DNA of 27,462 bases from a virus. The notes beneath the pieces were generated by a model. That model was not told where the DNA came from, did not search any database, and saw only the letters and a list, made by a program, of their open reading frames with translations. The position numbers and the translations under genes are program-made. The stretch lies in UHGV virus genome UHGV-1840938. The stretch is one strand, 5' to 3'. Of the stretch, positions 27,138 through 27,462 are shown piece by piece (the stretch's first letter is position 1; each line of letters begins with the position of its first letter).

Positions 27138-27415
27138 ATGGCATTTAAACATTATGATGTGGTCAGGGCATCATCGCCGTCAGACCTCGCAGGAAAACTG
27201 ACGCAAAAACTGAAGGAAGGCTGGCAACCCTATGGTAGTCCGATTATCTCAAACGCGGGTTATGGTGCTGAATTTATCCAGGCTATAGTCGCTGAAGGGG
27301 ATATGACCTCTCCGGTAGTTTCACCGGGGGGAGATGGTACCCGGACTGTTGTTGTTGAACCAGAATATTACTTTGTCATTGCGCTGGCCGGACAGTCAAA
27401 CGGCATGGCGTATGG
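27138..27415 (+). CDS. N-terminal fragment of a prophage NanS-p-like sialate O-acetylesterase (DUF1737 N-terminus then SGNH start), truncated at the contig end
   Basis: MAFKHYDVV... start with GGGAGGA RBS; ...VIALAGQSNGMAYG resembles the start of an SGNH hydrolase domain; the ORF runs into adapter sequence at 27416. Confidence 0.6.
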
Positions 27416-27462
27416 CTGTCTCTTATACACATCTCCGAGCCCACGAGACATCTCAGGATCTC
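27416..27462. other. Illumina Nextera (Tn5 mosaic-end) adapter read-through: synthetic sequence, not genomic
   Basis: CTGTCTCTTATACACATCT + CCGAGCCCACGAGAC + 8-nt index ATCTCAGG + ATCTC (start of the P7 tail). Confidence 0.9.

Follow-up and report, generated by a model that had tools for sequence, protein, structure and literature searches.

A contig of a lambdoid prophage ends in Nextera adapter DNA inside a NanS-p-like esterase gene

The DNA analyzed here, which we call the window, is a stretch of 27,462 nucleotides that represents the left (early) arm of an Escherichia coli lambdoid prophage. Its last open reading frame begins as an esterase gene and runs off the right end, and the lysis genes expected further along are missing. 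We asked whether this ending reflects a gene and a prophage that are truncated in the source strain or a break introduced during sequencing and assembly. A preliminary description of the window had favored the second answer, reading the final 47 nt as library adapter. The elements that we located in those 47 nt are as follows.

27416 to 27434, + strand: synthetic Tn5 mosaic end (ME), the exact 19 nt CTGTCTCTTATACACATCT with 0 mismatches, abutting the insert DNA directly
27435 to 27449, + strand: adapter-specific part of the Nextera read-2 (B) adapter, CCGAGCCCACGAGAC, 15 nt, within the exact 34-mer match
27450 to 27457, + strand: i7 index ATCTCAGG, a sample-sheet sequence listed as N715 (Nextera XT v2, set A) in the index table of PMC7589761 Appendix B
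27458 to 27462, + strand: first 5 nt of the P7 flow-cell tail, ATCTC, 5/5 in agreement with the start of ATCTCGTATGCCGTCTTCTGCTTG, after which the window ends

In order, the right-hand letters of the window are ...AACGGCATGGCGTATGG followed by CTGTCTCTTATACACATCT, CCGAGCCCACGAGAC, ATCTCAGG, and ATCTC. The 34-mer CTGTCTCTTATACACATCTCCGAGCCCACGAGAC had a single match in the window, at 27416-27449 on the + strand with 0 mismatches, and none of 100 dinucleotide-preserving shuffles matched it when up to 3 mismatches were permitted. Together, the agreement at 47 of 47 positions and this shuffle control rule out a chance match. No second mosaic end or adapter was found elsewhere within the window, and the left end is clean. 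The adapter occupies the last 47 nt on the + strand and faces outward, assuming that contig and window share their right end. A string of this kind appears at the 3' end of Nextera read 1 whenever the read outruns its insert. We are nearly certain that the terminal 47 nt are library-preparation DNA of a Nextera (Tn5 tagmentation) library and not part of the genome. Mosaic end, read-2 adapter, index, and P7 start all lie where the preliminary description had placed them, and they disclose the library type (Nextera, i7 index N715).

The boundary between genome and adapter can be placed to the base. We compared window positions 26400-27462 with 5,426 complete E. coli genomes. Over 26400-27415, six genomes matched at 100% (G1/2, G6/7, G8, SCU-104, UCPROB-001, and UCPROB-002) and a seventh, JNEC-KY173, at 99.3%. 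All seven alignments stop at query position 1016, which is window position 27415 (1,016 nt matched). In G6/7, ...GCGTATGG is followed by TGAAGGCCTGCCGCTGCCG, where the window has CTGTCTC instead (T versus C as the first base). Because the complete genomes match to 27415 only and G6/7 diverges at the next base, we set the junction of biological and synthetic DNA exactly between 27415 and 27416. The genuine continuation past 27415 in G6/7 is TGAAGGCCTGCCG (also given as TGAAGGCC), which encodes ...AYGEGLPLPE, that is, more of the esterase. The preliminary description had called the 47 nt non-biological, a claim that their presence in independent long-read assemblies of the same genome would have overturned; the 47-mer alone had no match in the 5,426 complete E. 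coli genomes, and the claim stands.

We also searched for the same adapter in other public records. A scan for the 34-mer in one genome per prokaryotic species (GTDB contigs) returned at least 128 copies on at least 120 contigs. Outward-facing copies with 40 nt or less left before the contig end made up 122 of the 128 listed, and they came from unrelated bacteria and archaea. The commonest remainder after the 34-mer was 12 to 15 nt among the listed GTDB copies, compared to 13 nt in the window. Among the matches listed, the tail after the index agreed with P7 in 97 of 108 other adapter-bearing contigs, and ATCTCAGG followed the adapter in 2 other public contigs. Four of the commonest octamers after the 34-mer among the matches listed (CGAGGCTG, GTAGAGGA, CTCTCTAC, and CGGAGCCT) are given as Nextera indexes in PMC7589761 Appendix B. 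In total length, the listed adapter tails at GTDB contig ends cluster at 46 to 49 nt, a range that includes the tail of the window. A complete adapter measures 66 nt.

Matches to the 47-mer also occurred in 43 GenBank/RefSeq records of a phage collection and 11 records of a plasmid collection. Exact matches covered only the constant first 33 to 35 nt, and four longer matches (39 or 47 nt) contained mismatches. The hosts of these phage and plasmid records are unrelated (Streptococcus, Listeria, Staphylococcus, and Klebsiella), a spread that marks a reagent sequence rather than a mobile element. Examples of adapter in deposited records are the following.

NC_049392.1, 29127-29173
NC_054922.1, 146326-146360
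NZ_CP040712.1, 163066-163099

Some of the phage and plasmid copies lie far from the record end and are possible mis-joins. In at least three records, such as NC_049392.1, NZ_CP102357.1, and CP127811.1, the adapter lies beneath an annotated CDS.

With Nextera or Nextera XT read-through contamination, the window shares the constant part of the adapter, a catalogue i7 index, the start of P7, and the outward terminal placement. There is no substantive difference, the index and the genomic junction alone being specific to this library or read. The window is an instance of a well-known contamination pattern, an ordinary quality-control artefact without biological novelty, and the value of the adapter finding is for quality control alone.

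The gene that the adapter interrupts retains the following features in the window.

27138 to 27415, + strand: genuine 5' fragment of a NanS-p-like prophage sialate O-acetylesterase gene (278 nt, codons 1-92 plus 2 nt)
27144 to 27296, + strand: DUF1737 N-terminal domain (aa 3-53; Pfam PF08410, E 3.1e-18, profile positions 1-53 of 53)
27390 to 27401, + strand: GQSN motif (G85-Q86-S87-N88), which opens the SASA/SGNH esterase domain and aligns to AGQSNAMAYGEG of NanS 3PT5

The open reading frame opens at the ATG at 27138 and reads MAFKHYDVV...LAGQSNGMAYG before continuing into the adapter-encoded CLLYTSPSPRDISGS. Across the junction (...NGMAYG, then CLLYTSPSPRDISGS), it holds 92 genuine codons of 657 and 16 spurious ones. 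The genuine part, 27138..27415, is 100% identical to six complete E. coli genomes, and the exact 108-aa esterase-adapter chimeric peptide had no match in a collection of 15 billion proteins. The full-length gene (1,974 bp, 657 aa) is complete in all seven complete genomes that share the upstream sequence, which upholds the earlier claim that the last gene of the window was cut artificially. In G6/7 and SCU-104, the full-length product is WP_000874521.1, which is annotated as a SASA family carbohydrate esterase and starts at the equivalent ATG.

Over the 278 nt that the window retains, this full-length allele does not differ from it at all; the allele contains three domains: DUF1737 (3-53), SASA PF03629 (83-274), and DUF6645 (508-618). 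Its residues 71-391 match NanS/YjhS (PDB 3PT5, E 3.3e-118), and residues 438-653 match the NanS-p C-terminal domain (PDB 6YP6, E 3.3e-43). Given these matches, NanS-p-like, the name used in the preliminary description, is a fair label for the intact allele. DUF1737 is the sole complete domain remaining in the window. The catalytic domain is represented by aa 83-92 alone (the GQSN block), and the C-terminal lectin-like domain, which contains DUF6645 in the full-length allele, falls outside the window owing to the truncation. By analogy with SGNH/SASA esterases, we take the nucleophile serine to be in the GQSN block. The 92-codon fragment in the window could not be active as the predicted 9-O-acetyl sialate esterase. 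Chromosomal E. coli NanS (YjhS, 3PT5) shares the SASA/SGNH catalytic domain with the full-length allele, GQSN block included, but it lacks the DUF1737 N-terminal domain and the lectin-like C-terminal domain and is not prophage-borne.

Adapter DNA at a contig end does not by itself explain why the contig ended at this place. One further feature bears on this point.

27159 to 27415, + strand: part of a >4.2-kb inter-prophage repeat (in SCU-104) and probably what underlies the contig break

In SCU-104, the same set of esterase and lysis proteins is encoded by each of two prophages. In an ungapped comparison, the two are heavily divergent upstream, with the last mismatch at ATG+20 (window 27158), and they are identical from window 27159 (ATG+21) for >4.2 kb, through the esterase and the lysis cassette. 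So sharp a boundary at 27159 suggests recent recombination or gene conversion between the prophages of SCU-104. For G1/2, the best downstream match was at a second locus, a near-identical copy (99.8%). The draft contig JAKXFM010000043.1 shares the 1,000 nt upstream with the window without a difference and breaks off after 21 nt of the gene, at the equivalent of window 27158, the last base that discriminates between the SCU-104 copies. Other drafts with the same S-subunit gene end 314 nt (JALMAZ010000006.1) and 302 nt (JAMKCY010000078.1) into the esterase gene, and adapter was found at the ends of none of these three drafts (0/3). Public partial proteins of the esterase cluster begin at aa 12, 29, and 47; they are the matching other sides of such breaks. 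Because independent drafts break there and partial proteins start there, we consider the 5' end of the esterase gene a recurrent short-read breakpoint.

On this evidence, we lean slightly toward a reading in which the adapter-bearing read capped a dead end induced by the repeat and was not the sole cause of the break. We put the role of the repeat only a little above even because the esterase region may be single-copy in the source strain. The contig enters the putative repeat by 257 nt, farther than a plain de Bruijn unitig with k<=127 would reach, and this weighs against the reading.

A break driven purely by the adapter is a serious competitor, with a probability somewhat short of even. Here the esterase region would be single-copy, and the chimeric genome-adapter read alone would have diverted or ended a resolvable path. 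In G6/7, one locus holds the upstream and downstream parts without interruption, and the set of complete genomes does not include the source strain, leaving room for a single copy. However, assemblers normally clip a short, low-coverage tip given a well-covered true path, and adapter-free drafts that share the upstream sequence stop at 27158 or no more than about 300 nt into the gene. The existence of a second copy, identical in SCU-104 and near-identical (99.8%) in G1/2, also argues against this explanation. The truncation is technical whichever route, repeat or adapter alone, the assembly took.

In the account that we consider nearly certain, the adapter reached the contig end as follows. 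The isolate was sequenced from a Nextera (Tn5 tagmentation) library with i7 index N715, in which at least one fragment had an insert that ended at genome position 27415 and was shorter than the read. Read 1 then passed the end of the insert and continued through the mosaic end, the read-2 primer site, and the index into the first bases of P7. With the reads untrimmed or incompletely trimmed of adapter, the assembler extended the contig with such a read, and since nothing overlaps beyond the adapter, the contig stopped. If the repeat also played its part, the true path would already have been unresolvable by this point, because from 27159 onward the sequence would belong to a multi-kb repeat common to lambdoid prophages (the esterase and lysis cassette). 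The remaining prophage would then be on another contig of the same assembly.

It is very unlikely that the prophage is truly truncated, that is, a cryptic remnant ending in nanS-p, with the adapter placed by chance at a real deletion or rearrangement junction. Defective lambdoid prophages are common, and no complete genome reproduces the whole window. However, a real deletion junction would run on into other genomic DNA, not into adapter, and the break point falls within a known inter-prophage repeat. The gene is also complete in the seven genomes that share the 1,016 nt, and G6/7 and SCU-104 continue into lysis genes. We read the downstream order in detail at these two loci only: the esterase gene is followed by DUF1378, DUF826, holin, lysozyme, and lysis protein genes in both, with terminase in G6/7. 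In the order read in complete genomes, the esterase gene is placed in the late region, between antiterminator Q and the lysis cassette. These relatives support the earlier statement that the right part of the prophage is missing through assembly, with the refinement that the adapter is probably a passenger on a repeat break. Any single complete genome accounts for at most about 60% of the window, so we infer the right arm of the prophage in the source strain only from relatives.

The chance that the 19-mer is a genuine transposon end in nanS-p, left by natural Tn5/IS50 or by laboratory EZ-Tn5 mutagenesis, is negligible. The 19-bp element is indeed a functional recognition end for Tn5 transposase, but its sequence is that of the synthetic, hyperactive mosaic end. 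Both natural ends of IS50, the outside end (taken to be CTGACTCTTATACACAAGT) and the inside end (taken to be CTGTCTCTTGATCAGATCT), differ from it. What follows is the Illumina 15-mer, the catalogue index N715, and P7, not transposon DNA, and then the sequence stops; the same string also terminates contigs of unrelated bacteria and archaea. With no IS50 sequence after the 19-mer, we rejected a natural or EZ-Tn5 insertion on sequence grounds. True integration of a synthetic transposome in nanS-p, for example by laboratory Tn5 mutagenesis with adapter-loaded transposase, can be dismissed as equally improbable, with nothing in its favor and the index and P7 tail strongly against it.

For annotation, we agree with the preliminary description that the adapter must be trimmed first, with the cut at 27415, after which the esterase gene should be annotated as partial at its 3' end. 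Left untrimmed, the adapter adds 16 false residues (CLLYTSPSPRDISGS) to the partial CDS and may lead annotators to call the esterase truncated or the prophage defective, both wrongly. The 47 nt should be caught by a contamination screen at submission. The read set was not properly adapter-trimmed; therefore, other contig ends of the same assembly need checking. More generally, the esterase-plus-lysis region of lambdoid prophages recurrently breaks short-read assemblies, and a missing right arm should never be taken as biology.

The genes and RNAs that we located in the rest of the window are as follows.

96-170: tRNA-Arg(CCT), followed by an integrase gene and a RecT recombination region
4215-4304, - strand: sRNA-Xcc1 (above the Rfam gathering score)
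5536-6282: DUF4145 protein (from the window)
13529-13616 and 13641-13716, - strand: C4 antisense RNA and isrK (above the Rfam gathering score), directly upstream of a Rha/Ash-family gene (12827-13612, - strand)
15344-16255: ClpP-like SDH-type protease (from the window)
Between the RecT region and Q: Rha, a LexA-like repressor with Peptidase_S24, a helicase, and a primase-like gene
22197-22727: antiterminator Q, followed by hok/sok
22758-22932, + strand: sok antitoxin RNA (above the Rfam gathering score), adjoining the Hok/Gef gene
23412-26527, + strand: two-gene restriction-modification (R-M) module
26714-26930, + strand: STnc100 sRNA, followed by the esterase gene

In relatives, RefSeq labels the two R-M genes (23412-25373 and 25442-26527, both + strand) HsdM family methyltransferase and restriction endonuclease subunit S, names that suggest a type I system without HsdR. 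PADLOC assigned 23412-25373 to a full-length fused type IIG restriction enzyme-methyltransferase (E 6.4e-228, aa 1-645) and 25442-26527 to a type II specificity subunit (E 2.2e-20). The N-terminus of the fused methyltransferase has a PD...EYK nuclease-like motif. For this 653-aa methylase, searches of PDB and NCBIfam were uninformative, and the assignment came from PADLOC. The pair at 23412-26527 looks like a complete BcgI-like type IIB/IIG R-M system that sits between Q and nanS-p, in the slot that stx occupies in Stx phages.

The NanS-p proteins of Stx phages (933W and phi24B) offer the closest comparison for the esterase. NanS-p of phage 933W has the same architecture, with DUF1737 at the same coordinates (aa 3-53) (PMC10462455). 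The features that the full-length allele has in common with it are DUF1737 at aa 3-53, SASA at about aa 83-275, and the lectin-like C-terminal domain (PDB 6YP6). The slot also matches: antiterminator Q lies before the gene, and DUF1378, holin, and lysozyme come after it. However, protein identity to the Stx-phage NanS-p is only about 58%, and the window retains only the first 92 of 657 residues. The prophage of the window also differs from phages 933W and phi24B in having no stx, the predicted BcgI-like R-M system being in the stx position.

The STnc100 sRNA (26714-26930, + strand) scored 149 bits over the full Rfam model and ends at a terminator-like hairpin at 26899-26920. It overlaps a 46-aa hypothetical protein that RefSeq annotates in relatives (G6/7 locus 6304-6444), a CDS call that may be spurious. 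Across E. coli genomes, the spacer from the R-M module to nanS-p is a variable cargo slot. Elsewhere, the same spacer holds TerB and DUF3927 genes, with PmrD also in one genome, and in the window it holds the STnc100 region only.

Accessory genes of the early region lie at 4446-7093 and 14712-16255. Related loci point to a RelE/HTH pair and an MT-A70 methyltransferase in the early region, and we infer from a related locus that the 114-aa open reading frame at 14712-15056 is HicB-like. The closest complete genomes carry a BsuBI/PstI-type R-M system in place of the 14712-16255 region.
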